A DNA stretch of 64,000 nt from Ostreococcus lucimarinus (GCA_000092065.1 CP000587.1); one strand, 5' to 3'. Numbered from the stretch's first letter, positions 13,301 through 64,000 are shown. The notes: generated by a model from the sequence alone, not told the origin. Program-made: numbers and translations.

Positions 13301-13664
13301 TTTGCGTTCAATTCGACCGCGACGGATTGTTCGCGACTTGCACGCGTCCAGAGTTTGTTTGCGTCAGACATGTACACCGAAAGTAGCATTTCTCTAGAAT
13401 CCTGATCATCGTCACGAGCGATGCGTTTTGCGTGCGAAGCGACGGAGTCCACCATGCCAGTGTACGCGCCCCAGTTGTTGTAGTTCTGGAATAAATGCGC
13501 GTGAAGTTCGTGTACAACATCGTTCCAGTATCGATCCAAGTAATCGGTTGAGTAACTCGATACATCTTCTTTTTGTGTGAGCAATTGCTCAAGCCAGACG
13601 GATAAACTGTCAACGCTGTTTGCGAGGTTTGACGGGACGTCGACTTCCTCATTCGTGAATGTAG
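7303..13664 (-). other. FKS/GT48 glucan synthase module 2. Coordinates are approximate.
   Basis: VRFHYGHPDV is encoded at about 9086-9115 (plus coordinates). The two catalytic cores are about 6.5 kb (about 2177 aa) apart, so each module is a complete FKS unit. Confidence 0.55.
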
Positions 13665-16600
13665 AGTCCTTCGCGCTCTTCTGGAAACCGAACATATCCG
13701 CGAGGTGTGAAGCAATAGGCTCGATCCTACGTTTGATTTCGGTGACTCTCTCGTTTTTGTTGGCCGTCATGTCACCCACTGATGTCAAATCTTCCTTCAT
13801 ATCCGGGATGGTGCTCGGCATCGGTCTAGCATAGCGAACAGGCGTCGATTTCAGGCCGAGGACCTTCCGGATGAAAACTCTGGACGACAGAAACCAAGTT
13901 TTTACCGAACGCGACGTCATCGCCCGATTGATTGTCGTCACCAAAGTGCGGCGGCGCATTTCGACGCCTAGCACAGATGCATATGCTCTGTTGAACAACA
14001 TCTTTGCGTGAACGTAAGAAATTGGCACGAGGGACAGCAGAGCGAGGCAAATATGCAGAGCCAATCCGATCACCTCATCCACATCTCGGAAGAAAAAGTC
14101 ACTGAAGATGCGCATCGTTCGAGCTATGTGCTTGAACATAGGCAGTGGAATATCGGAGATCAGTGAGGATATATGAACGACACAGTGCACCGTGCAGAAT
14201 GCCGCCAAGGCGAAAACGATTTTGTTCTGGCGCTGTTCAGTATCGAGCGTTTCGCTGAATAAACGTCCGCAGAGCTTCATGTGGAACACAACCAAAAAGA
14301 CTCGGACGCACATATTGTACATCAAGATGACGCTGCGTTTACCGACCTCGCTGGATGTGAGACCCAGTCTTTCCCCGATTGCGATTACGCGCTGCGGCCA
14401 GAAGAACGACGGCGACGTACTCATGAAATAGACTCCGGTGAGCAACAATCCGGCGATACCTGCAGTGACAACGACGACGCCTCGTACAGCCGGAATCCCG
14501 TCGAAATCGCTCACACGGACTGCCGCCGTACTACACACCATAAGGATGAGTGGGACAGGGAGAATGCGGAACGTGATGTACTCCATCTTGAGATGTCTCG
14601 GCATGGCGCGTAGTGACTTCATACGCTTGGCCTGCCACATCCACCAAGTGCCATCTTGATTGACTGCTCCTTGATTGCCAAGTTTAAAGGGATCAAGCCA
14701 GAATAGCCAAGAAGTGAAGTTTATCGCGGGGATACCCTCCTTGAAACTCTGTGGATGAAAGAACCAAGGTGAAAACATCCAAAGAATGACGGCGATCCAT
14801 ACATGCCAAGTTGTCGTCACAAAGACGTACCCTGCGCTGAACGTAGATAGTTCTGTGAGCAGAAGAGTCATCGCTAAAGTCGACATCGATGGAATGATGT
14901 GTGAAACCGCGTACTGCATGTAAAGGTCGGAAAAAGAGGCGTTCATACTCATACTGCGTTTGGTACCGCGGTACGACGCTTCGCCAGAGGCGATCGAAGC
15001 ATCGATAGCAGAGCCTCTCGATTTGGCGATGAACATGTGGTACACAAACGATCCCGTAACGATCCCGTGATAGGTATCTTTGACCATCTTTACTAAACCA
15101 CCGGTGATCCAACCGTGCAACATACCAGGCCAGGCCATCACCAAGCTCGCTTGAAGCATCCATTGCGATGGATACAGTGTTTCAAGGCCAATTTCTTGGT
15201 GGAAACCGACGTTATCGAAGGCATCGCCAGTTGTGTAATACGTTTCAATGCTAAACATTGCGATCACTGTCTTACACAAGACAAAGGCGGCCATGGATGT
15301 AAACAGCATGAATTCTGTGTAGAATAACCCAACCGACGACTGGAAAAAGCTCAAGCAGCGGAAAATGTCCATGCTCTTTGAAAGTCTATGAAAGTCACGC
15401 GAGATAAGCTGCATACCGTTCCCAGTAGCGATTTTTTTATTGAATTGGTTGTTACCATCGAATGAAACTTCTCGTCCCTTGCCACAGGTGGTAAAGTTCA
15501 CGTACTCGATTTTGCCACCCCGTTGCACGACATTCATACCTCCGTACACGTCCTCTGACAAGTGCAGTCTTCGAGAAGCCTTAGAGACTCCACCACTTGA
15601 GCGGATGAATGCACCATCCCATATGTCAGGGTGGCCGTAGTGCATGCGGACACGAAGAGGGTTCGTCATGAAACGCTGCAACAAAGTCCCAAAGACCGCC
15701 TCAGAAGTGGCCGCAAAACTCGACACTGACCCCTGACGCCCAGAAATCAGTTGTTCGGTAAAGCCGATGAGCACTATGTCTTCGTCGGATCCATACAACC
15801 TCAGAACGTTACGAAGTTTTAACCCTTCTGCGAGATGTGCATCTTGGTTCATATCAATCGTTTGCACATACATGCCACGCGACCAGACCAATCCCATGTT
15901 TTGGTTTTCGGGCTTGCCTTCGCCAACAATTGGATGCCCAGGAAGTTGAACACGATGCGTTCGCTTGAACTTTCCGTCTGCGCCGCGACTGAGCTTTGCA
16001 ATTGCGAAGTTATCATTGTCGCCACTCGGTTGTTCGACATAATTTACCGTGACATGCGGGAATTGTTCCACGAGCGCCTCCACTTCACCGTTCATCGTAT
16101 ATCCCGGTGAGTTGTAGACTTGGCAACACAGGACGTGCTCGAACTTTGCACGAACCAATGGTTCAATCTCATCTTCAGGGACGCCTTCCAGACGTGCCAA
16201 TAATCGTAGGGCATCGATGTAAGAGGCAAAGCCTCTCACCGTACGATATAAAGTTTGACCTTCGCCGCTCGCCCAGTTCATGGTTTCTTCACTCAGACGT
16301 TTTTCCTCATCGGTGAATGTGGACAAAGCAGTGATCTTGTCCAACATCGCGCGATCAAAAAAGTGCTCGTAGTTTGAGTCTTTCACCTTCACACCAGTGC
16401 GCTCGATCATGTTTTCCCACGAAGACGGTGCCATGCTGACCATGAAGCGAAATCCCGTGACGGATTCGCCATCGATTGTTGATGTCAACGTGTCCAACGA
16501 AGTGCGAATTTCTTCGGTGTAAACCGGAGTTAGCGTCGTCAGCATCGGCATCTGACGAACAGTCATTGGTTTCTTCATTGCAGGATCGCCGAGGCTTGAC

Positions 16601-19600
16601 ACGAAAAATCGAAAGATGTCTTTCGCTTCGTCCAAAGAAGGTTCGGCCGCGGGGTTCGCCGTAGAGAGCATCAGATCCATTTGTTTGATGACGTACGATC
16701 CAGCCTTGGAGGACGCCGCACTTCGAATTTTGGCTGATGACGAATCGAGAGCATTAAAATCCATGATTTGCTGAAGCTTCTCGCACGTTTTAACCAAGAG
16801 TACGTTCGTTTCTTTGTGCGTTGCGCGCTCATTCTCGCGGTCCTTTGCGATCTCAGTGCTGATGAGTTTGAGCAAATTTTCCATCTGCGAGCGAATTCGA
16901 CTGGTATCAAACGCACTTTCGTCATCTTCACGAACTCGCAACAGCTTCAATAGTCCCGCCGATTGCTCGCGCAGCGACCCGAGCCATTTTATCGCATGGG
17001 AATGCTCACTCAAGCTCAGCGACATGAGGTCAACGAGAGACTTGAGCAATTCTACAAACTGCACACGGTCTCTGGCGTCGACAACTCCGAGGACACAGGT
17101 AGCGATGAAAGCGAGCAAGTCAATCGATTGCGCAATCACGGATGACGAAAACGCAAACCGCATCTTTTCATTGCGCTGAACGCCAATTCCACTAAACAAA
17201 GAGCCACTGAGCATGATAGGGAAAACGACGTACCGAGAGCCGAAGAAGCTCTCGCTCGTGGGTCCATCCAGGATACGGAACAAAAGAAGATCGGTCTCTT
17301 CGTTACTCAAGAGGTCTCTTGAGCGCGTCGACTTCACGATCTCGTTCCATGCTTTCGCGAAAGAGAACCAGGCATCCGAAACGCTTTCTGAACACAATGC
17401 TGTTGAAGAGTCCGAAGGTGGTTCCGGCTTGGGAGAAGACGTCAAAACTTTTTCCGCAAATAAATCCACGTTTTGCGGCATATCAAGAACTGTGCGTGCC
17501 CACCCGCTGGCAATACCTGTGTTCTTGTAGCGCTTGTATGCGCTAGCGACGCCAAGCGTCGTGATGAAGTAGAAGAACGTGTTACCAAAGTACAGCAATA
17601 CACTCGGCATCCATCGCTCGAATAACATGAGCGCCTTGAATCCATATCGTCTCGCCAAACGAGTCATTTCGATTAGCTGTGGAGAGAGGAGCTCGTTATA
17701 GTCGTACGCATCACAGTCAGCCCCTGCGAAGTTATAATTCCAGCAGTACAGATCGAGTTCCAGAATCGCTTTCGTTGGTGCGATGAGGGGGTTGACCATC
17801 AAAATATAATCGAGGGTCAACTTCAACGTAAAGGTGACGACCCAGAAGATGATATACGACCGTCGGTCTTTGCTTGATATGGGATTGTTCACCTTCTCTG
17901 TGAAATATCTGTCCGTTTTGTCACCGGAAGTGAGTTGGTAGCCAGAGATATTGGCCAAAACCAGCACAGCGTAGGGGAAACCGACTGCAGCAAACGTCTT
18001 CACATTGATGAAGTCAGTGGCACAAGCCATCCCGAGTAGCAGAACTACTATAGCGAAAGCGGCGCGTCCGACTGATTCTACTCGACTATGGAACAACGCA
18101 ATTCGGTCGAAGAAAATGACTCTCGACTCGATGATCAGGTCAAATACGGCTGCCGTCAGCGCCGTCGTCGAGTACATTGCCGGTTCTGCAAATTTCACAA
18201 ATGCGTGCACAATCATAACGTGCATCATCAACGACAGGAGCGCGAAAATGCGATGGAAGTTGACATACATCGTCATCCAACCCAAATGCTCTCTGTAAGT
18301 TTTTCTGAAAACAACGCTCAAACTCTGATCTTTCTCCTTAGCGGCTCCCGCAGTGCGCACAAAATGCCTGAATTTAGCATACGAGCTTGTGCCCATCTCA
18401 GCGTCTATGTTCAGCATACGCTTCAACTTTGAGACATCAATAAATGTTTCATTCATATCATCGTAACCCATGCGAAGATGCAAAGGAGCAGCACTTTTCA
18501 TGTGCAATGCGAGGAAATTGTATAGCGGTCTCACAATTGAGGTGAGAAAATCATCCGCTTCAAAAGCCAAACCGGAGTCGGGTACAGCCGAACACATGGT
18601 GCCTCGGTTCACGACAGCCGCCGCCATGATGTGAAATACAAACATCATAAACTCTGGCATAAACCTCAAATTGGCAGACTCTTGGTAAATGAGCTCGAAC
18701 AGTACAAGCTGGCATAGCTTCGCATCAGTGCTTCCCTTCAACATCGAAGACGCCAGCGTCTCAGTTCCACGCGGAGAAAAATCTATGCCAGTGTAACTCA
18801 TGTATCGCTTATAACTCGCAAACGTTTTCTGATGAAGAGCCTGCGCGGCCCAGTCTGATTTGTTCGAGCTCGGCGCGTCTTGGAGTTGAGACGTGTTCCA
18901 AAGAAGCATCGCGCACTTATCGATGCAGCTTTCTCGTATGCTTGCGACGCCTTCGCTACCGTTTTGGAATCCAAATAAATCACCGAGACTTTGCGCGATG
19001 GGCGCAAGCCTAGTTTTCCACTGCTCAATATCACGCTCGATGGAGCTTGCTCCCGATGGCTCCGGGCCAAGACGAGTGAGAGAATCTTCTTCGAATTCGA
19101 CAGGTGGAGATTCTTTGCTGAGTTCACCGACGAGTTGCCGAGACGCTTTGGAAGGCGTACCCAACGCGCGTACAGCTCGTTTCTGGATATCCGCCGTCGC
19201 GCGATCGTCCGCAATAAACAGTCGAACGATCAAGAAATTCGATCGAGAAAGAGAGACTAATGCATCTCGCACGTATCGACGCGTTATACGCCAACGAATG
19301 GCGAGAGCAACGCCCAAGTACAAGATGATCGCTAGGTATACCACCGTCAAGAGTTCAACCTCAAGTTTTAAGGCATCGACGGATTCGCGGTCGGGGCAAC
19401 TCGTGTCCCCAGGTTGCTCAAATCGCTCTTTTTGATCTTCTATGTACGTCTCCAACTCTGTAAATATTGTCGGCGGCTCCGGACACGCTCTGTTATTTTT
19501 GCGATGAATCTGTCGCATGTGGTGACAGGTCAAAAAAGTGCTTTGCAATGCTGTCGAAACCGGGTTGATCAACCCCTTTGGATGCGTCAAGATTGCACTA

Positions 19601-33261: not shown

Positions 33262-34884
33262 ATGGACGACATTCGTCGACGCCGCGCGATGGCGTCGCGC
33301 GCGACGGCGCGCGCGGCGGCGTCGCACGACGCGCGCGCGGCGACGCGGCGCGCGCGCGTCGGCGGTGCGGCGCGCGAATCGGCGGCGCGGCGGCGCGCTT
33401 CGGGACGCGCGACGTCCGACGTCGACGGCGCTTCGGGACGCGCGACGTCCGACGTCGACGGCGCTTCGGGACGCGCGACGTCCGCGGACGCGTTCGATCT
33501 CGGACAGGCGATCGGGACGCTGGCGAGGGGCGAGCGAGGGGCGACGCTGCCGCCGGGACGCGTGGGCGCGCTCGGCGTGCGCGAGACGCTGGAGTACCTC
33601 GCGGACTCGAACGGCTTCGTGCGACGGCGCGTCGAGCGGTACGGACCGATTTTTAAGACGGCTTTGTTTTTCAAGCCGGCGATCGTGTTCGGAAGCCGAG
33701 AGGCGGTTCGAGAGTTTTTGAAATTTGAAGGCGAGCTCCCCGCGGACGAGGCGCTGCCGGAGACGTTTCGCGAATTGCACACCGAGTACGGGGCGCTGCG
33801 CATGACGGGGAGCAGACACGCGGCGACGCGCGCGAATTTCGGCAAGGTGCTGGGACGCGCGGCGCTGGAGAGTTACGCGCCGGCGATCGGGGAAAGGACG
33901 AGGGAGTTTGTGGAAGACGTAGCGCGGCGATCTGGGAAGGAGACGTCGTCGTTCAGGCCGGGCGCGGAGTGCGTGGATTTCGCGCTCGATTTGTTGTTTG
34001 AGCTCTTCCTCGGTCACGTGCCCGAGGCAAAGTACAAAGACGCGATGAAAGCGTACAACGGAGGATTACTTTCGCTCGGAAAATGGTCGTCGGAGTTTAA
34101 GGCTGGAAAACTGGCGCTGGAGGATTTGACGTCGTACGTCGAGGCGCATTACAGAGGCGTCAAAGCGCGCGGCGAACTCGATCGCCCAGAGTACTTCTTT
34201 TACAAGCAATACTCGCAAGCCGTGGACGAGTTCGACGAAGTGTTCAGCGACGATCGCATCGCGACGACGTGCGTGTTAATGGTCTGGGGTTCGTACATCG
34301 AAGCCGCCGCTCTCATGGGACACGCATGCGTTTTGCTGGGCGAGCACGACGACGCGCGGCGAGCCGTTTTGCGCGAGTTCGAGCGGGTGTGCTGCGACGA
34401 TGAAAACGGTTGTCGTCGCATCGGTACTTTGGCGGACATCATGTCCATGCAGTACACGTCCGCGGTGGCGAAGGAGTCGCTTAGAGTCATGCCGCAGACG
34501 GCGGGCGGCTTGAGAGTGAACCCGTCGCCTCGCAAATTCGCCTCGTTCGACGTACCCGCCGGTTACGTTTTGACCGCAGACCCACGCATTCCATTTCGCG
34601 ACGAAGCCAACTTCCCCGACCCGGACGCGTTCAAGCCTGAACGTTTCGTTCCAGGGACGCACGAAGCGAAGCAAAACGACGTCTCTTCGGAAACGTATTA
34701 TCCGGGCGGCATGGGCCAGCACCAGTGTCCTGGGATCTCTCTCGCGACGGTCATGACGCAAATATTTCTCGCCGAACTCGTGTCCGCTTTCCCAAACGGG
34801 TGGCGAGGAAAGACGGCGCCGAAATACGTTCAGGTTCCCATAGTCATCCTCGACAGAGAGTATGAAATCGAGTTTCTTCGCTGA
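33262..34884 (+). CDS. Cytochrome P450 monooxygenase.
   Basis: The Pro hinge is LPPGRVGALGV. The heme-binding loop is YYPGGMGQHQCPGISLA (FxxGxxxCxG). P450 length and layout are typical. ATG at 33262 verified. The N-terminal region contains the imperfect tandem repeat GASGRATSDVD x3 (about 33395-33480). Confidence 0.7.
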   Translation: MDDIRRRRAMASRATARAAASHDARAATRRARVGGAARESAARRRASGRATSDVDGASGRATSDVDGASGRATSADAFDLGQAIGTLARGERGATLPPGRVGALGVRETLEYLADSNGFVRRRVERYGPIFKTALFFKPAIVFGSREAVREFLKFEGELPADEALPETFRELHTEYGALRMTGSRHAATRANFGKVLGRAALESYAPAIGERTREFVEDVARRSGKETSSFRPGAECVDFALDLLFELFLGHVPEAKYKDAMKAYNGGLLSLGKWSSEFKAGKLALEDLTSYVEAHYRGVKARGELDRPEYFFYKQYSQAVDEFDEVFSDDRIATTCVLMVWGSYIEAAALMGHACVLLGEHDDARRAVLREFERVCCDDENGCRRIGTLADIMSMQYTSAVAKESLRVMPQTAGGLRVNPSPRKFASFDVPAGYVLTADPRIPFRDEANFPDPDAFKPERFVPGTHEAKQNDVSSETYYPGGMGQHQCPGISLATVMTQIFLAELVSAFPNGWRGKTAPKYVQVPIVILDREYEIEFLR

Positions 34885-52631: not shown

Positions 52632-53934
52632 GTCGAGCGACGCGCGCGTCGCCGAGCTCGATCGACGCGGGTACTACGTCGCCGTCGACGTCCCGCGCGG
52701 GGCGACGTTCGCGCTGGACACGGCGGAGTGGACGTGCGACGAACGCTTCGCGGGCGTCAAGGCGCTGACGCGTGGATTGCACTTCGTCGCCGTGCGCGAC
52801 GCGAACGAGCGAGGCGCGGGCGAACGCGTGGGAGAGTTCATCGACGCCGCGCCGGGAAGCGTGGAGATCCGGAGGTGGGACGCCGCGGTGGAGACGCTGG
52901 GGGAGGGAGAGGGGATGAGCGCGGAGGACGCGGAGCGCGCGCGCGCGGCGACGCGGGAAGGACGAGCGTTCGATGGAGGGTTAGCGTGGTATCCGACCGA
53001 GGTCGAGACGCGATGGATGGGATTGAGCGGATGGATCACGCGGGACAGCTTGCGGAGGTGTGGGGTGGATTGCGGGACGCGCGTGGTGGCGGGCGACCCG
53101 GAGGCGGAGACGCGCGGCGACGAACGGGGAGGAGTGGTGCCGTATTTCGATAACATACAGCGCGCGCCGACGTTTACGGTGAATGCGGTGCGGAAAAGGC
53201 CGAGTGGAATGACGCCGGCGGAGGTGTCGGCGATAAATATCGATGCGAACGCGCGGCTGGCGCACGCGGTGGCGTGCTTCGGCGACGACGGCTGGCGCGG
53301 GTTGTTGGGAGAGTTTCAACTCGCCTTCGTTCTCTTGATGGGGCTGTCCTCCATGGCGGCGTTGGAGCAGTGGAAACATCTCGCGCACGTGGTGTGCTCG
53401 TGCGCGGAGACGGCGGTGTTCGACTATCCGGAGCTTTACCTCGGGTTTGTCGACGCGCTCGATGCGCAGCTCGCGCGCGCGGGCGAAGACTTTTTCGTGG
53501 ACGATTACACCGAGGACAACTTCTTGCGGCCGTGCATGGTAGCACTGATGCGCATCGACGTCGACGACACCCCGAAGCGAGAAGTCACGGACATGGATGT
53601 CGAATCGACGCTGGACGCGATTTCGAGCAAGCTCGCCGCGCTCGCTCGCGGCGTGCGCGAGAAATTCGACGTCGACCTCATCGAGGAAGCTCGCGAGGCG
53701 AAGCTCGCGGACTCGAGCGTCGTCGACGCCGAAGAAGACGCCCCGGTCGTCGTCGAGTTGAGTGAGGGTCATTACATGGCCATGAACGCGACCGACGTCG
53801 ACGTCGAGTCCGACGCCTTCAAAACGGACGCCGAATCCGGCGCCGAGCGCATGGGCTGGATGCGCGCGTACGCGCCGACCAGCGCCGACCACACGCCGAG
53901 GAACGGTTCGAAATTCGTCAACCAACGGGCGTAG
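52630..53934 (+). CDS. AAR2: AAR2-family protein (U5 snRNP assembly/splicing factor AAR2 homologue).
   Basis: The N-terminus reads ...RRGYYVAVDVPRGATFALDTAEWTCDERFAGVKALTRGLHFVAV. The middle and C-terminal regions read GEFQLAFVLLMGLSSMAALEQWKHLAHVVCSCAE...EDFFVDDYTEDNFLRPCMVALM...DAPVVVELSEGHY. These are colinear with human AAR2 (GELQFAFVCFLLG...EHWKRL...DFFVD...DNFL...DCAPVVVELPEG). ATG at 52630 verified. Confidence 0.65.
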   Translation: MSSDARVAELDRRGYYVAVDVPRGATFALDTAEWTCDERFAGVKALTRGLHFVAVRDANERGAGERVGEFIDAAPGSVEIRRWDAAVETLGEGEGMSAEDAERARAATREGRAFDGGLAWYPTEVETRWMGLSGWITRDSLRRCGVDCGTRVVAGDPEAETRGDERGGVVPYFDNIQRAPTFTVNAVRKRPSGMTPAEVSAINIDANARLAHAVACFGDDGWRGLLGEFQLAFVLLMGLSSMAALEQWKHLAHVVCSCAETAVFDYPELYLGFVDALDAQLARAGEDFFVDDYTEDNFLRPCMVALMRIDVDDTPKREVTDMDVESTLDAISSKLAALARGVREKFDVDLIEEAREAKLADSSVVDAEEDAPVVVELSEGHYMAMNATDVDVESDAFKTDAESGAERMGWMRAYAPTSADHTPRNGSKFVNQRA

Positions 53935-54170
53935 AATCGAATCGGTCCCATGCCGCGGCATCCTCGGTCGTACGTCAGCGATTCCAACTTTTCGTGGAAT
54001 CCGCTCGCGTCGCGCAGGCACCCGGGCCAGATCTCGGCGTCGCTCGTCGCCTTCGAGCCTCGCCGCGACGTCGACATCGCGCGCGTCGCGTTCGTCGTCC
54101 CGCGGCTTGTGATCGTAATCTCACGAACGACCATCCGCGGCTTCGCCTCTCGCCTCTAACGGTAGGGGTC

Positions 54171-54566
54171 GGTGATGCTGAAATCTGCTACATGTTTTTC
54201 AGACTTTTTTTGCTACAAGTTTCTGAACTTTCAGCCAATTTTTGCTACAACTTGTAGCAACTTTCAGACAATTTGCACGCAGAAAGTCTGAAACTTGCTA
54301 CGTCTCCGGTGATGCTGAAATCTGCTACATGTTTTTCAGACTTTTTTTGCTACAAGTTTCTGAACTTTCAGCCAATTTTTGCTACAACTTGTAGCAACTT
54401 TCAGACAATTTGCACGCAGAAAGTCTGAAACTTGCTACGTCTCCGGTGATGCTGAAATCTGCTACATGTTTTTCAGACTTTTTTTGCTACAAGTTTCTGA
54501 ACTTTCAGCCAATTTTTGCTACAAGTTGTAGCAACTTTCAGACTTTGGTGTAGCAAGTTTCAGACT
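54171..54566. repeat. Tandem array of a 137-bp unit, about 2.9 copies. It is AT-richer than its surroundings and internally palindromic.
   Basis: ggtgatgctgaaatctgctacatgtttttcagactttttttgctacaagtttctgaactttcagccaatttttgctacaacttgtagcaactttcagacaatttgcacgcagaaagtctgaaacttgctacgtctcc restarts at 54171, 54308 and 54445, and the third copy is truncated. The units contain the perfect palindrome gctacaa-c-ttgtagc and the inverted pairs tttcagact / agtctgaaa. Confidence 0.85.
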
Positions 54567-54836
54567 GACCCCCTCTCGCCCGAAATCGACATTCGGCGTC
54601 CGCGTCACCAATTCAACGAACTCGCCGGCATTGATCGGGCGCGACGTCACGCGTGCGCGCGAACGAAGCGAACGAAGCGAACGACGCGACCGCTCGATCG
54701 AACGGCGCGACGACGCGAACGACGCGACCGCTCGATCGAACGGCGCGACGGCGCGACGCGCGCCGGCGCGACGAATCGAATTCGCGTCGCGCGATTCGTT
54801 GAATTGCGATTGCGCATCGACGGTCGACGGTGAACC

Positions 54837-56609
54837 ATGGCGAACGCGCTGATCGCGTTTACGCTCGCGAACGCGGCGTGTGAGCTGGTGACGCCGATAC
54901 GGTACGCGCGGACGATGACGCTGTGGAGCCGAGGACGCGGGGATTGCGGAGAGACGGCGAAGATTGGAGCGGTGTGCGGGTACCTGATTCAAATCGCGGC
55001 GACGTTTACGTGGTACGAACTCGCGGTGCTGGGAATCATCCCGGGCGGCGCGAGCGACGGTACGGTGGACTTTGAATTGCGATTGATACATCAAATGTTC
55101 ACGTACGTGACATTCGGAGCGGTGTTCGCTATTTGGCTGGACGACCTCGCCGTCGTCGGCGCGCCCGTTTCGTGGTGCTCGTCGCTGGCGAGATTGTACC
55201 AGTTCTTCTCGACGCGAATGATCGCGTGCATGATGATCATGGCGAGTCGAAAAACGCCAACGGCGTGGCATCCGTTCTGGACCGCGGCCGGTTACACGGC
55301 CAGCGCGGTAAAGGGCGCGGGAACGGACGTAATTCTTAAATATGCGTACTACTTTTGCCGAGCTGGGTTCAGCGTTGTGTCCATGGCGATAGCGCTGACG
55401 GGGGTATTTTACTGGAATCCAGTTCGCGCCTGGTTTATCCGCGTAGAAGATTCTCAATCGCGCGCGAGTCGCACTTCGAACCGCAAGGAGATGATGCGAA
55501 CCATCTTTTGGCACTGTGCGTTTGGTCTGATTTTCAGCGCAATTTGGATCACGGCGTCGAATTCAGGAATTCCTCGCATCGATGCCATCAAGGGGGCATC
55601 TAGATCTACCATGTCTACGCATTACTTCGAGCCTTGGATTCCGGGACACCAGATCATCCACGCGAAGAATCACGGGCAAACGATGATAGCGGTTGCATAC
55701 GCCACTTTTATCGCGTACTCATTGAACTATATGGACGACGGCGGTTTGTGGATCTCAAAAGTTCTCTCAATTCAACTGCCCGCCCAGATTTACAACTTTT
55801 TTGTTGTTATTTACATCATCGTCGCCCTTGGTGGTGGAACCATCTTTCATCCAACCTGGTACACGAATGGTTGGGCCCCAAGCTGGGCGACACATCGTAT
55901 GCTGGATTGGCTCTTCTTCGTTGGTACTGGTCATCTGACTATTTTCGGTGTTCCACTCATCACGTACGCGCTTCTCAAGCATCTCAGTATTCCCGAATTT
56001 AAGCCGTATGCGACTGCTTCCATGGGCTTCTTTACCAAGTGCATGCGTCATGGAATGGTATCAATTTTGTTTTCTGGGCTGTGGATGATGGCCGTCAGTA
56101 CGGGCGTGCCCATGCCAGATGCCAAACTCACAGCCATGTTTGGACTTCCCCCTCTACACAAACTCGACGTGCGAGAAACTATCAAGATGCATCACGTCGA
56201 TATCATCGTGAGCATAATTATTATGGCGAACGGTTACGCCGTGCTGGCTCTCGACCGCGTTGTTCAGCTGGATTACAAGCTGCATCAATTCATCACTGTC
56301 GTATGGAAGCACTCGATGACCAGTCGATGGGTGTACTTTTGGTGTGCGAAAATTCTCTTGCATAGCGGCGAGCGTTTTACTACACCGAACGTTATCGCCT
56401 CGCTCTTGCGCTTCCGATCGCAAGTTAAGTCTACCAGCAGTGACAACTGGTTTTTCGTTTTGATCGCCGTCATGGAACTGTACTCTTTCACCGCGATGAT
56501 GCTCTTATTTCTCTTCACACTCACCCGAATGGCTCGTGCCAGTGTGGCTTACTTGAGAAATAACGGCCAAGGTCAGGTAAACTGGACAACCGGCCTGAAG
56601 CAAGAATAG
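54837..56609 (+). CDS. Polytopic membrane protein of 590 aa and unknown family. It may be a paralogue of the N-terminal membrane module of the lipoxygenase fusion at 58138..63984.
   Basis: ATG at 54837 verified. There are at least 12 hydrophobic helices, rich in Trp/Tyr. It shares short colinear motifs with the fusion protein's N-terminal region: EPWIPGHQ vs SHSWIPALRQ, HPTWYTNGWAPSW vs LLYTNLWYQG...MPEW, and STGVPMPDAKL vs TSGIPHPVPLSD. GC drops along the gene. Confidence 0.5.
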   Translation: MANALIAFTLANAACELVTPIRYARTMTLWSRGRGDCGETAKIGAVCGYLIQIAATFTWYELAVLGIIPGGASDGTVDFELRLIHQMFTYVTFGAVFAIWLDDLAVVGAPVSWCSSLARLYQFFSTRMIACMMIMASRKTPTAWHPFWTAAGYTASAVKGAGTDVILKYAYYFCRAGFSVVSMAIALTGVFYWNPVRAWFIRVEDSQSRASRTSNRKEMMRTIFWHCAFGLIFSAIWITASNSGIPRIDAIKGASRSTMSTHYFEPWIPGHQIIHAKNHGQTMIAVAYATFIAYSLNYMDDGGLWISKVLSIQLPAQIYNFFVVIYIIVALGGGTIFHPTWYTNGWAPSWATHRMLDWLFFVGTGHLTIFGVPLITYALLKHLSIPEFKPYATASMGFFTKCMRHGMVSILFSGLWMMAVSTGVPMPDAKLTAMFGLPPLHKLDVRETIKMHHVDIIVSIIIMANGYAVLALDRVVQLDYKLHQFITVVWKHSMTSRWVYFWCAKILLHSGERFTTPNVIASLLRFRSQVKSTSSDNWFFVLIAVMELYSFTAMMLLFLFTLTRMARASVAYLRNNGQGQVNWTTGLKQE

Positions 56610-56806
56610 TCCGTGAGCAATGGACTTAATTAAAAACTTTCTGCGACTTACTACTCTTTACATCAACTGAAAACGGTCAAGAAGTGTTCGCACACCGGTT
56701 GCTATACAAAAGCCGTTTGTGCACTTTTGCCATAGCATTCTGGAACCTTGTGCGACTTCGAAAAGGATGCTTGATACAATACATATGAATATGCTATGAC
56801 TATTAA

Positions 56807-57859
56807 TTACGCTAATTTCGATGCTCGTGAAGACGAATGCGGCGCGCCATCGAGCGATTCATTGTCATGTAGTAGAACGCTGATGTATTCAAGCATCGCT
56901 TGCCCCGCCGTGTCATTCAGAATTTCCTCAAAGGAGAGTGATCCGCGATTCGAGATATCGATGCGCTCGAAAAGCTCTTTTATGTCTCGTGCGTCGACGC
57001 CCCACGTGAACAATTGCTCACGGAGCTCGCTCCCATCTAACGTGCCATTACCATCCTTATCCAGCACATCAAAAGCTGTCCGTAACGGCGTCTTACCGAT
57101 TCGCAAACGTACCAACGAATTCACTCTACCACAGATAGCTGCAAAATTGCGTTCTTTTCCGCTTTCCTCGGATCCGCACGCGTTGGAATACGCGGCAATG
57201 ATGACTATGGCAATGAGGGCACCCACGGGACCGTACACTGCTGGTATGACTAAAAACAGTGCAAGAGTTGCCCCTGTCGTGTACCGGTGCTCCTTAATAC
57301 CCGGAACATTCGTGAACGCAAATATAAACATTCTGGAATACACGAACCCCTGCGCGAGAACGAGCTGGTCGATGAAATTTTCCAATACGGCGCCGCTCGA
57401 GTCTGACGAAAGCGCGCCGGCTCCAATCAGCACTCGAAACGCTTTTTCGATGTGCGCGGTGTTTATAATGTGCAATGCAGGAGTTATAATAGACGGTGTC
57501 CCAAACGATGCGTCGATTTGAAGCATCGCCGTGAGCGCGATCACCAACACGCACGCCGCGCTCGCGCGCATCGTACCCCTCGCGCCGCCGCCGACCAGCA
57601 ACGCTCGCGCGCCCAACGTCAGCTCCATCGTTCCGAAGGCCACGTGCACCAACAGGCGCCTCGCTCGTCGACGATTCAGTCTAAATTTAGGATGCATGCG
57701 CTTCTTGCCCGCTCGAGCGTAGCCCAAGACGAGGAAAATCTCGAGCACGTACCCGATGACAATCACGGCAATCTTTTGCGTTCGCTGCTCGCTCGCCTCG
57801 CGCACGGTCCCACCGAACGCGTACGCACCGAGCGGGAGATCATACGTCCATGCGAACAT
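56807..57859 (-). CDS. Multi-pass membrane protein with a C-terminal EF-hand pair (putative Ca2+-binding).
   Basis: ATG verified (CAT at 57857-57859). About 6 TM helices are followed by ...AFDVLDKDGNGTLDGSELREQL... (canonical 12-residue EF loop DKDGNGTLDGSE) and ...LFERIDISNRGSLSFEEI (a second, weaker EF loop). Confidence 0.5.
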   Translation of the reverse strand: MFAWTYDLPLGAYAFGGTVREASEQRTQKIAVIVIGYVLEIFLVLGYARAGKKRMHPKFRLNRRRARRLLVHVAFGTMELTLGARALLVGGGARGTMRASAACVLVIALTAMLQIDASFGTPSIITPALHIINTAHIEKAFRVLIGAGALSSDSSGAVLENFIDQLVLAQGFVYSRMFIFAFTNVPGIKEHRYTTGATLALFLVIPAVYGPVGALIAIVIIAAYSNACGSEESGKERNFAAICGRVNSLVRLRIGKTPLRTAFDVLDKDGNGTLDGSELREQLFTWGVDARDIKELFERIDISNRGSLSFEEILNDTAGQAMLEYISVLLHDNESLDGAPHSSSRASKLA

Positions 57860-58137
57860 TTACGCGTGCGTATCGAACGCGCGTCGTCGGGTCGAGACGA
57901 ACGCGTCGCGGTGTTCGGTTGGCCGTTGAGCGGGTTTGGGAAGTGCTTGTTTGAACGTTGTGCTTTTGCTTAAATAGTAAAACTGGTAGCGCGACAAACG
58001 CGTTATCGCACGATAAACGCGCTATCGTTGGGAATGTATCCAAAACTACGAATAGGCCGCAGGCTCGCGGCGGGAAGTCTTGCTCGTGGTGAGTTGGTTC
58101 ACCCACCGATTTTTGGAATTTTGACGCAACAGTGGCT

Positions 58138-60115
58138 TTACACACCAATGTTGCTCGGCACGCGTTCTGGGTGCATGTAAGGATATGCCTTTACTCCAAG
58201 CTTTGCGTTGCGGTTTTCGATCTGGCGTCCCATGGCACGCAGCTCAGAACGGAGATCTTGGAGAGCGGCGATTTCAGCCGGCGTAATCATCATGTCAGTG
58301 ATGTAATGTCCGACAAAAACCTCTTCTTTTGAGAACTGTGAAAGCGTCCAGCCAGTCGCCATCGTCTGCGCCGCTTGACCGACGCTCGGCAGCGCGTCGA
58401 TAACATCTTTTTCCGTCACCGGAACCTTCTTCGTCGGCGCAGGCTTGCGCATGATGAGCGGACGATTTGGACAATAAGAGTAATAGTCCCACTGGCTGAA
58501 GTTGACTGCGGCGTGAGTAAAAGAGCACGTGTACATCACTGACGTGCAGATATCAACAAGTTGATCGATTGAATCGATACTACCCGGCACACCGTGCTGA
58601 CTTCTGTCCGTGCCTTGGTATCCATAGCCTTGCATCTCAAGAATCATGCTCTGTATGTATGGATCGGCGGCAACTTCCGCGTCAGACGTGTAGTGCAGCT
58701 TGAAGATGCTTTTAGCGAAACGACGAAGACAGGCCCATGCTCGCAACGAGTCGTCACGATGATGATAACCTCTCAAATCTCCCTCACTTAGCACGCCACG
58801 TTTTTTAAAGGAGGTCGGAACGTGCAAATCGTCAAGCTTAAATCTCTGGTACGCTTTGCTCATCAAGTCCATGTGACCTCCTTGGCCAACTGCTACGACG
58901 CGATCAGTAACTCCTCCCGGAGATATTAACAACGACCGCCCAAGGGTATTGATGGCAATCACGTAGATGAGATGAGGACGCAATACCCGGTACACAGGAT
59001 GGTTTCTTGGAAGAGTTCTTTCGACGCAGACGGACCACGGTTCCATGAGCAAGTGCGTGCCCAATAGGTGCGATATCATCTGATGTACGTTTCCGTCAGA
59101 GCACATTAAGTGCGCTTTTGCGAGGAGCCACTCGTACTCGCCATCTTTTGGAGTCCATACCGGCGCGCTAGCACCAGACTGAAAGTGCTGGATGCAGATT
59201 GGGCGAAGTGCCGTGCTCTTGTCCGCAAAGAAGAGAGCCATGGAGTTCTCGACGCAGTAGCCTTGACCGCGCTTGATATCCTCAAGGATTTCATAGTCAA
59301 CCATGAATATGTGCCCTGCTGCCAACTCGCTTTCGAGCGTTTTGCCTGGAGGTAAAACGCCTCTTACATGTTCTTCGGTGACGCGAAACTTGGCTGGAAT
59401 TTGAGACACTTTGCGCACTTGATTTGGATGTGTTCCATTCATAAATTGACGACCAAACTCCTCGTCCGAACGCCAGTCTCTGATGATTGCAACAGGGGGG
59501 AGAGAAGCGTAAAGGCGATAGTAGTCATCCAGCGATTTAATTTCTTCGTCCTTGATCATTTCGGCGACGCCTTTATTTTCGAATCCCACAAAAGTATCGA
59601 CAAAGAAGTCCTTGTATTTTGTTGAGCTGAATTGCTCCGTGATGGGGAGCTTTGAGTGGTCGTCATATGTGCTATGATTTGGCAAGTACGAACCATTCGA
59701 CCAATCGAATTCCTTCTTCATGAACGAAAGGTACTGTTCAGTCGCATCGGCGATCAGTTGGCGACAAGCCAAGCTTGTTGTCGGCGTAATGGAGCACGGA
59801 AGAACGAATCGGACACCTTGGCCAATGTATCGCCACACATTCAACGTGAAACTCGTTGGAATTTGCGAAGTGAACGTCACATCTATCCGACCGCAATTCC
59901 AAGAGCTTTTCGAGGTTTGAGAAATAATGGCGTAAGCTGGCTCTCCAATATCGTCGGCGTGCACGAAGTGCGTGCTGATTGCTCCAGTTGCGAAGGAGTC
60001 ACCGAGATCATGCAGGACGATTTTGGGCGTAGCGCCACGCGTTCCGACGAATTGTAGCACCACATCACCGTCTATTCCAGACCCAGCGATTGAATGCGTC
60101 GTAACTTTGATCGTA
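58138..60115 (-). other. PLAT domain (about 59700..60115) plus lipoxygenase catalytic domain (58138..about 59700). Coordinates are approximate.
   Basis: KYTIKVTTHSIAGSGIDG is encoded at plus about 60066-60120. AHLMCSDGNVHQMISHLLGTHLLME is encoded at plus about 59045-59115. Confidence 0.6.
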
Positions 60116-63100
60116 TACTTTTTTGACGCTTCAGGAGCGTAAACGTCTTTTCGTCCGCGGGTGAAAACGCGGCGAATTTTATATGACGTCTCGTAAACCA
60201 CCGCACGCGTCCAGTTCAAGGAGTTATAGTCTTGCGAGTTGATTGGTCGAGTGAGAGGCATGCAAGCCGGAGTACGATTCATACCGAACGATAAATTCTC
60301 AACCGAGTGTTGCGGGAGTGCGGCGTGAAGTCTCACGACTCCAACGTCGAGAAATTCAGTCCCCCAAGCTTTGTTGGGGTTGAAAATTTCCGCGGTATCC
60401 GAAGAAGTGGCCTCATATAACTGGATTTGAAGTCGGTACCTCACGGCTTCGCCCGCCACCTTGGTGCAGAACTCGTTTCGCAGATAGTCAGGCAAACGTT
60501 TCTCGTTCGGTAGTCGACGATATTTCATCATATGTGTCGTTGCGATCAGGTTCTGGTCAGCCTCGTCAGGCAAGAACGGCTCTTGACCGACGTCCGTCCC
60601 AGGGCCAGCTCCGTATGGAACGAGTCTGAACTTGCAGTATCGCTTTTTGCCATCCAAAGCATGGAATTCGCGACAAGTCTGCGAGTAATAATGTAAATCG
60701 CAGTACGAGTCGGGTGCCCTTCGCACCCCGCCGATACCAGCCTTAATGCCTGTGGGATACTTCATTCCCCATGCCTTGTAAGCGGAGTCGTTAAACGTCG
60801 CCATTTGAAATACGAACGGAAGAAACGAATCCAAGTTGAAAAATCCAGCGAATTCACCAGTGTTCAGGTGCAGATCGAATGGACTTTCGTCGACGGCATT
60901 TGAGAACTTCAGCGCACAACCTCGAATCTCAAGAGATGCGTCGTCATACATTTCCGAGTCGGCGAGCTTCACGCCGACGGCGTTCGAGTGCCTCAAGATG
61001 ATTGGCATCGTCTTGCCCTTCGTAAAGAAAGCATTTTTGGGCACCTTACTGTTCTCGATGACGGTGAATTGCCCGATCGCACCAACACCGACTGGATGGG
61101 TCGGGCGCCTTTTCTGCATCAGAGTGCCAAACACGAACATGAAAGCAATCTTCAACTGCATCACCAGCAACCCAAACGCATTGGGAGGTGGCATTGGAAT
61201 GGGAAACTCGGAATTCGAGGCTGCGTCGAACATTTCATCTCCGAAAGCGGCTTTATAACACTTGACCCAGTGATTTTGCCACTGTGACACCACCGCGACC
61301 AATGGCCTTGGAGAGGTGGATGGCGACTTCGACAAAATACGACCGAAACTCGACTTTCGCATCGTACTCATCTCATCCGGAACCACAATGCCCCGCTTAA
61401 ATAGTGCAGCAATGAACCTTACCTTGACGGTACTGAGCATCACCACTCGGTTTTTAACCGAATGGATCAACTTTTGAGTGGCTTTGGCGAATTGGAACCA
61501 GACATAAGTCCAACCCATGGTGTGGAGGAACAGCGAAAGCGTCAAGGGTGTACTGGTGTAACCGCAAAGCCACGAGAACCGCGAAACAAACACCAGCATG
61601 TGCATGAAATACACTCCACGGACGACTCTCATCACAGGTTTCAAGAATCGACCAAACGACGAGACGCCGCTTGTAAGGACTGAATGTGTCAGCGCGAGAG
61701 TCAAGAGACAGAAGTATCCAACGTGAAAGGAATCCTCGATGATACTGTCAGCCGATTCAAACGCGGAGAGAGTCATGAGCCGTCGACGAAGGAGGTCAAC
61801 CATCGAGTTCGAAAGAGCGCCCGCGCCAATAATACGCACTAACCTGATGAGAATATGCCAGATGTGAGATAATGCACCCAGTGTGCACATCATCTTCGTC
61901 GTCTTCTGGATTGCATGAAAACGCGACCTCGCCTCCTTCGACGTTTCGTGCGTATTCACGAGAGCAATGTGCTGCAAGTACACCCGAAGCCAAGCCAGGC
62001 ACAGTAAGATGATTTGAACATCAGTCTCGACGCTTTCTAGGTATGCATTTTCGAAGCGCTTTGCGTCACAACTGCGCAACGGGCATCCTAAGAGTATGTG
62101 AACGAGGGTTCGTGAAACTTTATCACTCTTGCCCGTCAGCGCCTTGTAATAGAGTGAGATAATCACAAACCACAAAGTGATAGTGCTCTGCGCAAAAGTA
62201 TTCATGGAGAGTGCGACTCCTTTTGGAAAAGAAGGGTTCATGAGATTGTGGGCAGCGAAAGATAACAGTAGAGGACTGATTGCGGACATTCTTGGAACTG
62301 GCTTCGGTGCGATCAAGTACGTGTCTGAAAGCGGCACAGGATGCGGTATACCACTCGTTAGCAGAGCGATCGGAAGCATAGCGCAGAGGACAAGGACCCC
62401 ATTTATCCATGCACACTTCTCTACCTGCCGTTGCAAAGCGAAATGCTTCAGCACAAGCATGCGCCAGCGTCCACGCAAATTCGTGAAACCCGTTCGCTGG
62501 CCGCTCGAATCCGGATTTCTGGAAAGGTGAACGGCGCCTCGTACGCACGCGTAGATTGAGAGCATCATGATGAGCCAGATAGTGAAATCAACCCCCACCC
62601 AATCACTGGGAGCGTGATGTAACTTTCGCGTCCACGGATTGGACATAGCACGAGCCACCAGAAAATGATCGCAGAGAGTGTAGGAAACAGACATTGCCAT
62701 CACGCCGTAGATCAATCTGGCGCTTCTTAGCGTTCGTTGGTCAGAAAATGCGCTCTTTCGAATCACGGCGGTGCTTATACCCACGAACGCGTGCAACACG
62801 ATGGAGTATTGCATCATTGAAATGCGAGCCAACTCGGCGTCGCCGCGCAGCAGCGCGTGTTCCTTGCTGAACCGTAAGCGCAGGACGGGAAAAGAAAGAG
62901 TTGACAAGCGGCGTGCGATGGTGCGGAGGATTGGAAAGTTGACCTTCAAAAGTGGTACCTGAAGGCGACCCCACTCTGGCATCATCACACCGGTGGCGAT
63001 GCCCTGGTACCACAAATTTGTGTACAGGAGACTCCCCAGTATGAACAAATGCGCCATGGATGCCAGGGAGACACCAAACATGTGGAATCCTTTGCGAGTC

Positions 63101-63984
63101 GGCCCGACGAAAATGGGACCGTTAAACGCGTGGTGAAAGAGAATGTTCATCAGGGCGGCCGTCATGATTGTGAAGAAGGGCATGTTGATAGAGAACCTGA
63201 ACCAGTCCGGCAGTGATCCGTGCGTTATGATGATCAACGCGAGAAGGCTCTTCGACGCTATCATGACGAACAGTGCGCCGAATGAACCTTGCCGCAGTGC
63301 AGGAATCCACGAATGAGATAGAATGCCAGTGACGAAGAGACCGGCGGAACACATACCGATGGTGTTTGGATTGCGCATGTTCGCCAAAGCGGAGAAGTGT
63401 CGACCGAACTCGAGTACGAAGATCGCCCCGCCGATGTAACAGATGCTAAATAGCACAGCCAGACGTTCGTGCATGATAAATAGCGTCGACGCTGATCGAG
63501 GTTTGGGAATCTTGAAATACCTGACCCGTTTCTCCGGCGGCACGTCCACCACGCCCAAGCGGCTCACGCGAATCAAACAAAATTTACCCAACGCGCCCAG
63601 ACCGTCCACGGACACCATGAGCGCTCCGACCGCGCAGTTCGGCATCTTCATCATCAACCGTAATCCATAAAGCGTCACGAACGCCAGCTGCGTTTCAGTC
63701 GCGTAATGCGTGTACGCGTCGCTCCCCGTGCACACGTACGACCACCCAATCGCGTGCACGCACGAGAACACGTACACCCACAGCGCCAGGCACGTCCCAT
63801 CGAACGAATTGAACACCAAATCGTTCGCGATCGCCCCGACGACCGCCGGCCGCGTTCGATCGCGCGCCACCGCCGCGTACGTCACGTACGCCGTCGACAG
63901 CACGTAATTGATTCCCTGCAACGCGTGGAAACGCCCGACCGACCATCCGGGCCTTAGCGCGTCGCTCGCCGCGTCGCTCGACAT
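58138..63984 (-). CDS. Fusion protein of 1948 aa. It combines an N-terminal polytopic membrane module, a catalase-related (allene-oxide-synthase-like) hemoprotein domain, a PLAT/LH2 domain and a lipoxygenase.
   Basis: This is one uninterrupted ORF with a verified ATG (CAT at 63982-63984). The catalase-like core HPVGVGAIGQFTVIENSKVPKNAFFTKGKTMPIILRHSNAVG...LEIRGCALKF parallels catalase [41 protein letters not shown]...FAVKF. The PLAT domain reads YTIKVTTHSIAGSGIDGDVVLQFVGTRG...NCGRIDVT. The LOX iron-ligand region reads HQMISHLLGTHLLMEPWSVCVERTLPRNHPVYRVLRPHLIYVIAINTLGRSLLISPGGVTDRV (compare HQLxSHWLRTHxxxEPF...HPIYKLLxPH...IN.LAR..LI..GG), and the C-terminus ends ...PSNIGV. The N-terminal 900 aa or so are Trp-rich multi-TM. 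Confidence 0.75.
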   Translation of the reverse strand: MSSDAASDALRPGWSVGRFHALQGINYVLSTAYVTYAAVARDRTRPAVVGAIANDLVFNSFDGTCLALWVYVFSCVHAIGWSYVCTGSDAYTHYATETQLAFVTLYGLRLMMKMPNCAVGALMVSVDGLGALGKFCLIRVSRLGVVDVPPEKRVRYFKIPKPRSASTLFIMHERLAVLFSICYIGGAIFVLEFGRHFSALANMRNPNTIGMCSAGLFVTGILSHSWIPALRQGSFGALFVMIASKSLLALIIITHGSLPDWFRFSINMPFFTIMTAALMNILFHHAFNGPIFVGPTRKGFHMFGVSLASMAHLFILGSLLYTNLWYQGIATGVMMPEWGRLQVPLLKVNFPILRTIARRLSTLSFPVLRLRFSKEHALLRGDAELARISMMQYSIVLHAFVGISTAVIRKSAFSDQRTLRSARLIYGVMAMSVSYTLCDHFLVARAMSNPWTRKLHHAPSDWVGVDFTIWLIMMLSIYACVRGAVHLSRNPDSSGQRTGFTNLRGRWRMLVLKHFALQRQVEKCAWINGVLVLCAMLPIALLTSGIPHPVPLSDTYLIAPKPVPRMSAISPLLLSFAAHNLMNPSFPKGVALSMNTFAQSTITLWFVIISLYYKALTGKSDKVSRTLVHILLGCPLRSCDAKRFENAYLESVETDVQIILLCLAWLRVYLQHIALVNTHETSKEARSRFHAIQKTTKMMCTLGALSHIWHILIRLVRIIGAGALSNSMVDLLRRRLMTLSAFESADSIIEDSFHVGYFCLLTLALTHSVLTSGVSSFGRFLKPVMRVVRGVYFMHMLVFVSRFSWLCGYTSTPLTLSLFLHTMGWTYVWFQFAKATQKLIHSVKNRVVMLSTVKVRFIAALFKRGIVVPDEMSTMRKSSFGRILSKSPSTSPRPLVAVVSQWQNHWVKCYKAAFGDEMFDAASNSEFPIPMPPPNAFGLLVMQLKIAFMFVFGTLMQKRRPTHPVGVGAIGQFTVIENSKVPKNAFFTKGKTMPIILRHSNAVGVKLADSEMYDDASLEIRGCALKFSNAVDESPFDLHLNTGEFAGFFNLDSFLPFVFQMATFNDSAYKAWGMKYPTGIKAGIGGVRRAPDSYCDLHYYSQTCREFHALDGKKRYCKFRLVPYGAGPGTDVGQEPFLPDEADQNLIATTHMMKYRRLPNEKRLPDYLRNEFCTKVAGEAVRYRLQIQLYEATSSDTAEIFNPNKAWGTEFLDVGVVRLHAALPQHSVENLSFGMNRTPACMPLTRPINSQDYNSLNWTRAVVYETSYKIRRVFTRGRKDVYAPEASKKYTIKVTTHSIAGSGIDGDVVLQFVGTRGATPKIVLHDLGDSFATGAISTHFVHADDIGEPAYAIISQTSKSSWNCGRIDVTFTSQIPTSFTLNVWRYIGQGVRFVLPCSITPTTSLACRQLIADATEQYLSFMKKEFDWSNGSYLPNHSTYDDHSKLPITEQFSSTKYKDFFVDTFVGFENKGVAEMIKDEEIKSLDDYYRLYASLPPVAIIRDWRSDEEFGRQFMNGTHPNQVRKVSQIPAKFRVTEEHVRGVLPPGKTLESELAAGHIFMVDYEILEDIKRGQGYCVENSMALFFADKSTALRPICIQHFQSGASAPVWTPKDGEYEWLLAKAHLMCSDGNVHQMISHLLGTHLLMEPWSVCVERTLPRNHPVYRVLRPHLIYVIAINTLGRSLLISPGGVTDRVVAVGQGGHMDLMSKAYQRFKLDDLHVPTSFKKRGVLSEGDLRGYHHRDDSLRAWACLRRFAKSIFKLHYTSDAEVAADPYIQSMILEMQGYGYQGTDRSQHGVPGSIDSIDQLVDICTSVMYTCSFTHAAVNFSQWDYYSYCPNRPLIMRKPAPTKKVPVTEKDVIDALPSVGQAAQTMATGWTLSQFSKEEVFVGHYITDMMITPAEIAALQDLRSELRAMGRQIENRNAKLGVKAYPYMHPERVPSNIGV
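60120..61200 (-). other. Catalase-related (cAOS-like) heme domain. Coordinates are approximate.
   Basis: RRPTHPVGVGAIGQFTVIENSKVPKNA is encoded at plus coordinates about 61065-61145 (reverse complement). Confidence 0.55.
61280..63984 (-). other. N-terminal polytopic membrane module of the fusion. Coordinates are approximate.
   Basis: It contains at least 15 hydrophobic helices. Only the first 300 nt or so (63700-63984) are GC-rich. The rest matches the low-GC body. Confidence 0.45.
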
Positions 63985-64000
63985 CGCGTCCCGCGCGTCC

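Follow-up and report, generated by a model that had tools for sequence, protein, structure and literature searches.

Between the AAR2 gene and the first gene of a GC-poor region, the genome of Ostreococcus lucimarinus carries a palindrome-rich tandem repeat. The locus lies in a stretch of 64,000 nucleotides (GCA_000092065.1, CP000587.1; CCE9901, 783-kb chromosome), here called the window. In a first-pass annotation, the repeat was read as a satellite or MITE-like element, a recombination or insertion scar, or a structured regulatory or insulator region. What the repeat is, and what it has to do with the nearby change of base composition, is the question treated here.

Structure of the tandem array

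The array was recognized by Tandem Repeats Finder at 54170-54543 with a period of 137, 2.7 copies, 99% matches, no indels, and a score of 741, and it is by far the strongest tandem array of the window. Over its whole span (54170-54571), 2.7-2.9 copies of the 137-bp unit were counted at 99% identity, and the roughly 2.9 near-identical copies of the first-pass annotation are real. Three in-register copies were aligned in repeat comparison. The first two (54170-54306 and 54307-54443) are 100% identical, and the third (54444-54580) is only 77% identical to them because its last ~37 nt differ. The monomers are placed head-to-tail, as in a satellite or minisatellite. The array ends 266 nt upstream of the ATG of a 590-aa protein gene. 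The gap between the AAR2 stop (53934) and this ATG (54837) measures 902 nt, as estimated before (about 900 bp).

The building block of the unit is a 16-17-nt module, GTAGCAA[C/G]TTTCAGAC(T), found in both orientations; its 17-mer form is AGTCTGAAASTTGCTAC. Six modules were counted in the array against 0.19 expected by chance, and none in the rest of the 64-kb window. The perfect palindrome that had been reported as 7-1-7 exists, but its length was understated. It is a 9-1-9 palindrome, TTGCTACAA-C-TTGTAGCAA, with three occurrences against 0.00 expected. At scales of 100, 200, and 400 nt, the lowest GC of the window falls on the array (33-38%; window mean 58.5%). In single-stranded DNA folding, the whole array was far more stable than shuffled sequences (z = -7.6). 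The hairpin potential claimed for each unit is better than that of shuffles, but only moderately (z = -2.65). A known RNA was rejected as an explanation, since the Rfam search of the array gave nothing near threshold (best 24.5 bits vs. a gathering score of 211).

Two other tandem repeats were observed in the window. An unrelated GC-rich 38-bp repeat of 2.5 copies was found by Tandem Repeats Finder at 54660-54756 (+ strand). It has one unit fewer in three metagenome contigs (L002, L006, and L008), and this difference between samples is probably real variation because the repeat is short enough. A perfect 33-bp repeat (33395-33484, 2.7 copies, 100% identical) lies where the sequence is GC-rich and ORFs overlap.

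Dispersed copies and the two ends of the family

Copies of the unit were searched in JGI metagenome contigs. The 17-mer scan gave at least 120 loci. Among the matches listed, some thirty loci carried two to four exact 17-mers or at least three relaxed-pattern matches, and the remaining ones were chance single matches. In the nhmmer search with the unit, near full-length copies were found in many contigs that have no other sequence in common with the window, so the 137-mer is dispersed. By BLASTn, the window units and the metagenome copies are 88-95% identical. This dispersal was seen in related metagenomic genomes; in CCE9901, there is one locus within the 64-kb window. The family copies occur beside unrelated genes and in any orientation.

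The family has two sharp ends. The T1 end is CGGYGATGCTGAAATCTGCTAC, and homology stops exactly at CGG[C/T]GATGCTGAAATCTGCTAC (CGGYGATG...), where the window unit starts on the + strand. The T2 end is GTAGCAAGTTTCAGACTGACCC (54550-54571 in the window), and homology stops exactly at ...CAGACTGACCC. At least seven different non-window flanks were found in marine metagenome contigs for T1 and at least nine for T2, and several of these flanks come from one and the same sample. Each end is composed of five to six copies of the 16-17-nt module in both orientations. The module is common to both ends in inverted orientation, yet at the very tips the inverted match is poor, with only about 15 of the 22 terminal positions in agreement.

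With these ends, the array can be read as two T1 ends of 137 bp followed by one complete 128-bp short element running from T1 to T2. Unit 1 (54170-54306, + strand) is a complete T1 terminal region, i.e., the T1 end (CGGTGATGCTGAAATCTGCTAC), a module-rich part, the 9-1-9 palindrome, and an outer hairpin ('Q'). It showed 93-95% identity to the long metagenome copies in their terminal region and an nhmmer score of 125 bits. Unit 2 (54307-54443, + strand) is identical to it. Unit 3 (54444-54571, + strand) is the short form, in which the T2 end, ...TTTGGTGTAGCAAGTTTCAGACTGACCC, comes after the first 100 nt; these 100 nt have one C-to-G change relative to units 1 and 2. Its layout matches a copy of ~127 bp in contig L036 and the T2 ends of L046 and L047.

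Long copies have the TTGCTACAA-N-TTGTAGCAA palindrome near both ends, and in the short form the T1 end is joined to the T2 end via this palindrome. Short non-coding forms of 71, ~127, and 128 bp carry T1 and/or T2 of larger elements, as expected of MITEs. In the ~127-bp copy, the T2 end deviates.

Long or multiple arrays of the same monomer were not found; the other family copies examined were all single. The satellite reading thus holds for a local three-copy amplification of a transposon end and for nothing beyond it. The finished CCE9901 reference has three copies, and so does a metagenome contig of 766 kb (L001), which is independent of it. In short-read assemblies there are two, and these versions may be assembly collapse, as k-mer assemblies cannot count identical 137-bp units. 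The last amplification step appears to be recent because unit 1 and unit 2 have the same sequence and only one change is found in the first 100 nt of unit 3.

Two other origins of the family were considered and rejected. The 16-mer had only 10 matches in IMG/VR, all of them single and none in a module cluster, which speaks against a viral origin. Contigs of 12.85 kb that start and end in the unit, some of them reaching CCCTAAA repeats, had suggested a linear plasmid or virus of that length with the unit as its terminal inverted repeats, or else a subtelomeric element. However, two longer contigs (L096 and L139) continue into ordinary unique DNA past three telomere-like repeats, and homology stops on the side facing the cassette described below.

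Target-site duplication

A 9-bp direct repeat, CCTCTCGCC, flanks the array. Its right copy (54572-54580, + strand) directly adjoins T2, whereas its left copy (54146-54154, + strand) is separated from T1 by a 15-nt spacer, TCTAACGGTAGGGGT (54155-54169, + strand). This spacer was not found beside T1 in the other copies compared. The repeat is probably the target-site duplication of the element. With its left copy displaced, it is not a textbook duplication. The element would have inserted into ...GCTTCGCCTCTCGCC|CGAAATCG..., upstream of the 590-aa gene.

Besides the window, the duplication could be tested at one independent complete T1...T2 locus. This is a 71-bp element, composed of T1, two modules, and T2, which was found at one locus in three samples (L062, L068, and L129). 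A perfect 9-bp direct repeat, CGAGCGGTT, stands on both sides of it. This copy shows that T1 and T2 terminate one and the same mobile unit, which makes 9-bp duplications. No duplication was detected at the L036 short copy or at the related L168 element. A duplication of 9 bp is what MULEs, i.e., Mutator-like elements, produce (8-11 bp, typically 9).

Coding relatives of the element

A larger coding relative with common ends was found. In contig L058, a GC-rich internal segment, which follows the T1 region in long copies, is succeeded by a 1017-aa ORF and T2. A 1.9-kb deletion derivative was found in contig L081, which unites the internal segment with T2 and with a T1 end whose tip is truncated; L081 and L058 are 96-97% identical. 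The full element of ~4.9 kb, which encodes the 1017-aa protein, was reconstructed from two overlapping contigs; among the contigs examined, none carried a full-length T1 end, the ORF, and T2 together.

Seven homologs of the 1017-aa protein were found (40-100% identity), whose contigs measure only 3.7-6.1 kb, and the family has 43 representatives among 1.84 billion proteins. One 90% cluster of this family includes XP_022840681.1 of O. tauri, a protein without a name, and the family was placed in the genus Ostreococcus on this ground. It is the only tie of the metagenomic copies to a named species.

In domain search, the 1017-aa query itself had no Pfam match. Distant members matched Peptidase_C48 above threshold (27.6, 37.4, and 56 bits). 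They also matched the MULE domain PF10551 inside the family-profile region with E = 6e-5 and 23.9 bits, below the cut-off of 27.6. Weak sub-threshold matches to Transposase_mut (PF00872) were obtained in three further members, and the SWIM domain scored 12.8-16.7 bits in three members, below the cut-off of 19.6. The alignment, inspected by eye, has the invariant motifs LPLGxDGxW, VWNSDDHxAYA..CPCxxHIVRRI, DNQPIES, and WxCNC..RRxxCGH, which we take to be of the kind known from Mutator-type transposases. At the C-terminus, a triad pattern NHW...YDS...Q.D..SCG was seen. The AlphaFold model of a 1005-aa member was too poor to show a DDE fold (7 sequences, pLDDT 50), and only the protease domain was recognizable in it. 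With the C-terminal part of this model, Foldseek ranked SENP/Ulp1 proteases first among PDB folds; at the Cys motif, the CE-clan protease RickCE was matched in a profile search of the PDB. The protein would thus be composed of a putative MULE-type DDE transposase, a SWIM finger, and a C-terminal Ulp1-like protease, and the modules may be the binding sites of this transposase.

A sister family (44% identity; L168 and L169) has complete elements of ~5.75 kb. Its inverted terminal repeats follow the same plan with a different 16-nt module, GTCTCATTTTCACTAC. In L168 they are clear, are built of repeated modules, and reach 45-90 nt; MULE terminal repeats are expected to have about 100 bp or more. 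The best classification of the family is a Mutator-like element with an Ulp1-like protease. A 1288-aa ORF near the family copy in contig L083 was considered as an ortholog of a 1288-aa ORF of the window and was rejected; the two have no similarity, and their equal length is a coincidence.

Origin of the array

The MITE-like reading of the first-pass annotation is supported by the dispersed family, its sharp ends and varied flanks, the 9-bp duplication, and the larger coding relative with common ends. We consider it likely that the array is a non-autonomous MITE-like copy of an Ostreococcus MULE, in which the ~137-bp T1 region has been duplicated head-to-tail. An internal deletion from the TTGCTACAA-N-TTGTAGCAA palindrome near one end to that near the other may have produced the short form. 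Between the repeated modules, unequal exchange, replication slippage, or aberrant gap repair could have given rise to the tandem copies. Most simply, the array is a selfish insertion. The element accounts for the palindrome-rich island of low GC; the regional GC shift has another cause.

The array could instead be a cis-element, i.e., a promoter, enhancer, or insulator, for the 590-aa gene, with a host factor acting on the 17-mers. It is in the 5' intergenic region and is AT-rich within a GC-rich genome, its motifs are helically spaced with a sub-period of ~32 nt, and every insertion-type metagenome contig covering the region keeps it without a base change. However, this invariance is equally explained by recency, since the flanks are also ~100% identical. 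The motif is absent from the orthologous lipoxygenase clusters of four related lineages, for which reason a conserved regulatory element of the cluster was rejected, and the same sequence stands beside unrelated genes in any orientation. A regulatory role is therefore improbable as the explanation of the array, although such a function does not conflict with a transposon origin.

Insertion sites and the low-GC cassette

The surroundings of the transposon copies were compared for target choice. In six of the nine non-window contexts, the telomere-like motif AGGGTT starts 23-24 nt beyond T2, and in eight of nine it is within 9-27 nt. The loci concerned are the T2 flanks of L037, L046, L047, L051, L052, L054, L062, and L071 and the T1 flank of L035. 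The spacing in the six corresponds to the 9-bp duplication, 14 nt, and AGGGTT, and the spacers are unrelated in sequence. The motif belongs to host DNA because the first 9 of the 23-24 nt are the duplication in the 71-bp copy. Beyond T2 of the window copy, AGGGTT is absent. This spacing suggests a targeted integration. In contig L047 (4970-5070; also in L049, L126, and L145), a head-to-head telomere palindrome, (TTTAGGG)2 ... (CCCTAAA)2, was observed directly after T2, flanked by a 20-nt inverted repeat. L047 begins with a true telomere array, 4.9 kb from this palindrome.

A 12.6-kb low-GC cassette was found in eight contigs (L061, L103, L133, L070, L102, L150, L096, and L139). It encodes KdsA, a KpsF-like isomerase, a CMP-KDO synthetase fusion, and several glycosyltransferases. 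Inverted long copies of the same transposon family, ~600 bp each, bracket it, and in different samples the cassette is joined to either outer flank. This switching of flanks is either an inversion polymorphism or a switching of assembly paths.

It is conceivable, although doubtful, that the family picks its targets by such a ruler and that its copies drive the inversion and movement of such cassettes in low-GC DNA resembling outlier chromosomes. If both were true, a site-directed transposon would help to build the hypervariable, virus-resistance-linked regions of wild Ostreococcus. It would also contribute to presence/absence variation of gene clusters, of which the lipoxygenase block treated below would be one example.

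The 10.4-kb block and the GC shift

The array is located within a larger insertion of 10.4 kb, which begins at ~53867, fills the window to its end at 64000, and runs on to a window-equivalent position of ~64243 (L001 19407). Besides the array, three genes lie in the block, for the 590-aa membrane protein, an EF-hand protein, and a lipoxygenase. In contigs with flanks that are 99.1-99.97% identical to CCE9901, L001 position 8986 or 9030 is joined directly to 19408 or 19414, so that AAR2 adjoins GCN1. The same neighborhood was found in a strain with 91% AAR2 identity and in three outgroup lineages (~60% identity). On this comparison, the empty state is ancestral and the block a derived insertion, because near-identical genomes, the 91% strain, and the three outgroups have AAR2 beside GCN1.

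The block has 52.7% GC against 63% in the neighboring DNA, and it is the block, not the array, that causes the regional GC shift. The array had been thought to mark the exact point of the composition change. This is approximately right in position, but the array is not causal, since the shift starts at ~53867, ~300 nt upstream. The reading as an insertion scar is likewise correct in that a 10.4-kb insertion begins there, but the array is not its junction. The orthologs of the block genes in other lineages are equally GC-poor. A second low-GC block was observed at 7303-21765 (- strand), where an uninterrupted ORF of 4820 aa encodes a giant 1,3-beta-glucan (callose) synthase with 51% GC in surroundings of 63%. 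Low GC therefore tracks particular long genes, and not insertions alone.

The insertion has changed the end of AAR2 (XP_001418668), a splicing factor. It replaces the last codons of the gene (53823-53934). AAR2 has 434 aa where the block is present; the two empty alleles, distinguished from each other by a 57-nt deletion, encode 419 and 403 aa. The first gene of the block (54837-56609, + strand) encodes a multi-pass membrane protein of 590 aa (XP_001418669), for which no Pfam family was found; homologs with 60-69% identity exist in related lineages. The lipoxygenase gene (58138-63984, - strand) encodes a fusion protein of 1948 aa with a weak catalase-like match (20.6 bits vs. a cut-off of 25). 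Sub-threshold PLAT and catalase-like matches lie upstream of its lipoxygenase domain, an order that recalls allene-oxide-synthase–lipoxygenase fusions.

In the window (54837-63984), the gene order is membrane protein (+), EF-hand (-), and lipoxygenase (-). Other Ostreococcus-like lineages (L021, L025, and L029) have lipoxygenase (-), membrane protein (+), and EF-hand (-), with different neighbors each time. The window order is a circular permutation of theirs, which hints at a movement via a circle or a tandem duplication.

At the block edges, family modules were not found, and the right edge was searched with up to three mismatches. Inverted repeats or duplications were limited to an ambiguous GAC..CGCCGAGGA match and an imperfect ACG(G)CGCC repeat, and the junctions have only ambiguous GC-rich microhomology. 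Under the circle or tandem-duplication model, a remnant of the lipoxygenase 5' region was sought left of the array; the best local alignment scored 44 against 23 ± 3.6 in mononucleotide shuffles, but it falls in low-complexity, GC-rich sequence. The transposon insertion and the block insertion were treated as separate events because the array is ~300 nt inside the left edge and no module is present at either edge.

The element might otherwise have moved the lipoxygenase block itself, by composite or Pack-MULE-like transposition or by recombination between copies. This would fit a derived insertion that is missing from part of the genomes of the species, with a permuted gene order and a neighborhood that differs in each lineage, and the KDO/glycosyltransferase cassette between two inverted long copies offers a metagenomic parallel. 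However, the position of the array, with its own 9-bp duplication within the block, and the lack of a module at or near the right edge are against it, and the junction microhomology fits end-joining better. A Pack-MULE would have an element end on either side of its captured genes and the duplication beyond them, an arrangement that was not found for this block. Mobilization of the block by the element is thus improbable.

Two further readings are very unlikely. A chromosome-maintenance element, i.e., a short AT-rich centromere, a replication origin, or a relic of a chromosome end, could be imagined at the lowest-GC point of the window in a family whose copies are strikingly often near telomere-like TAGGGTT, one of them 4.9 kb from a true telomere, but the locus is dispensable, since genomes of the same species are without the whole block and hence without the array, many copies exist per genome-scale sample, copies carry target-site duplications, and at the usual distance from the window copy a telomere-like motif is lacking. 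A local minisatellite made by slippage and unrelated to mobile DNA, or an assembly artefact, would suit a single locus in the window with two or three copies in different assemblies, but the first is refuted by the 88-95% identical copies in many unrelated contexts and by the 71-bp element with its duplication, and the second is hard to reconcile with an array found in the finished reference and in more than 10 independent assemblies of different kinds.

The preferred reading remains a transposon copy with an amplified end inside a separately inserted block. The block has a meaning of its own, since an ordinary chromosome of O. lucimarinus shows here a natural polymorphism of presence and absence. 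Multi-gene structural variation thus extends beyond the outlier chromosomes, and sharp local GC changes should be read with caution, as in these genomes they can mark recent insertions and not functional boundaries.

Comparison with known systems

The array alone is a routine outcome, i.e., a transposon end amplified in tandem. What is gained for work on Mamiellales genomes is a transposon family with defined ends, a duplication length, and a candidate transposase-protease, whose proteins, including one in the O. tauri reference, are currently without annotation.

Tandem amplification of transposon parts has been described elsewhere. In Drosophila virilis, building blocks of the terminal repeats of the foldback transposon Tetris became a satellite (PMC4079207), and tandem dimers of transposable elements have been described as seeds of satellites (PMC5932611). 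As in these cases, the monomer here is a terminal region of a DNA transposon in euchromatin beside a gene. Unlike them, there are three copies at one locus and no sign of further expansion.

In O. mediterraneus, a 1,001-bp 'spacer' with 225-bp inverted repeats was proposed to be a non-autonomous transposon; it has few copies on several chromosomes in hypervariable regions (PMC13390643). It is non-coding with inverted repeats like the window element, but the two, compared by description, differ in size and structure.

MULEs have been reported in outlier regions of Mamiellales (bioRxiv 10.1101/2025.04.21.649811). The present family shares with MULEs and Mu-type MITEs the 9-bp target-site duplication, terminal regions of ~100-140 bp packed with repeated short motifs, and deletion derivatives that keep the ends only. 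It also shares with MULEs a protein with D..D..E-like, CxxH, and SWIM-like (CxC...CxH) motifs. Unlike MULEs, the ends are only loosely inverted at their tips, the transposase matches are below Pfam thresholds, and in the window copy a 15-nt spacer lies between one copy of the duplication and the end.

MULEs with an Ulp1-like (C48) protease include the KI-MULEs of Arabidopsis and CUMULE of melon. The family resembles them in its element-encoded C48/CE-clan protease domain. Transposons carrying ULP1 have been discussed before (PMC2836005). In contrast to KI-MULEs and CUMULE as described, the protease is here fused to the C-terminus of the putative transposase, and its carrier is a green picoalga.
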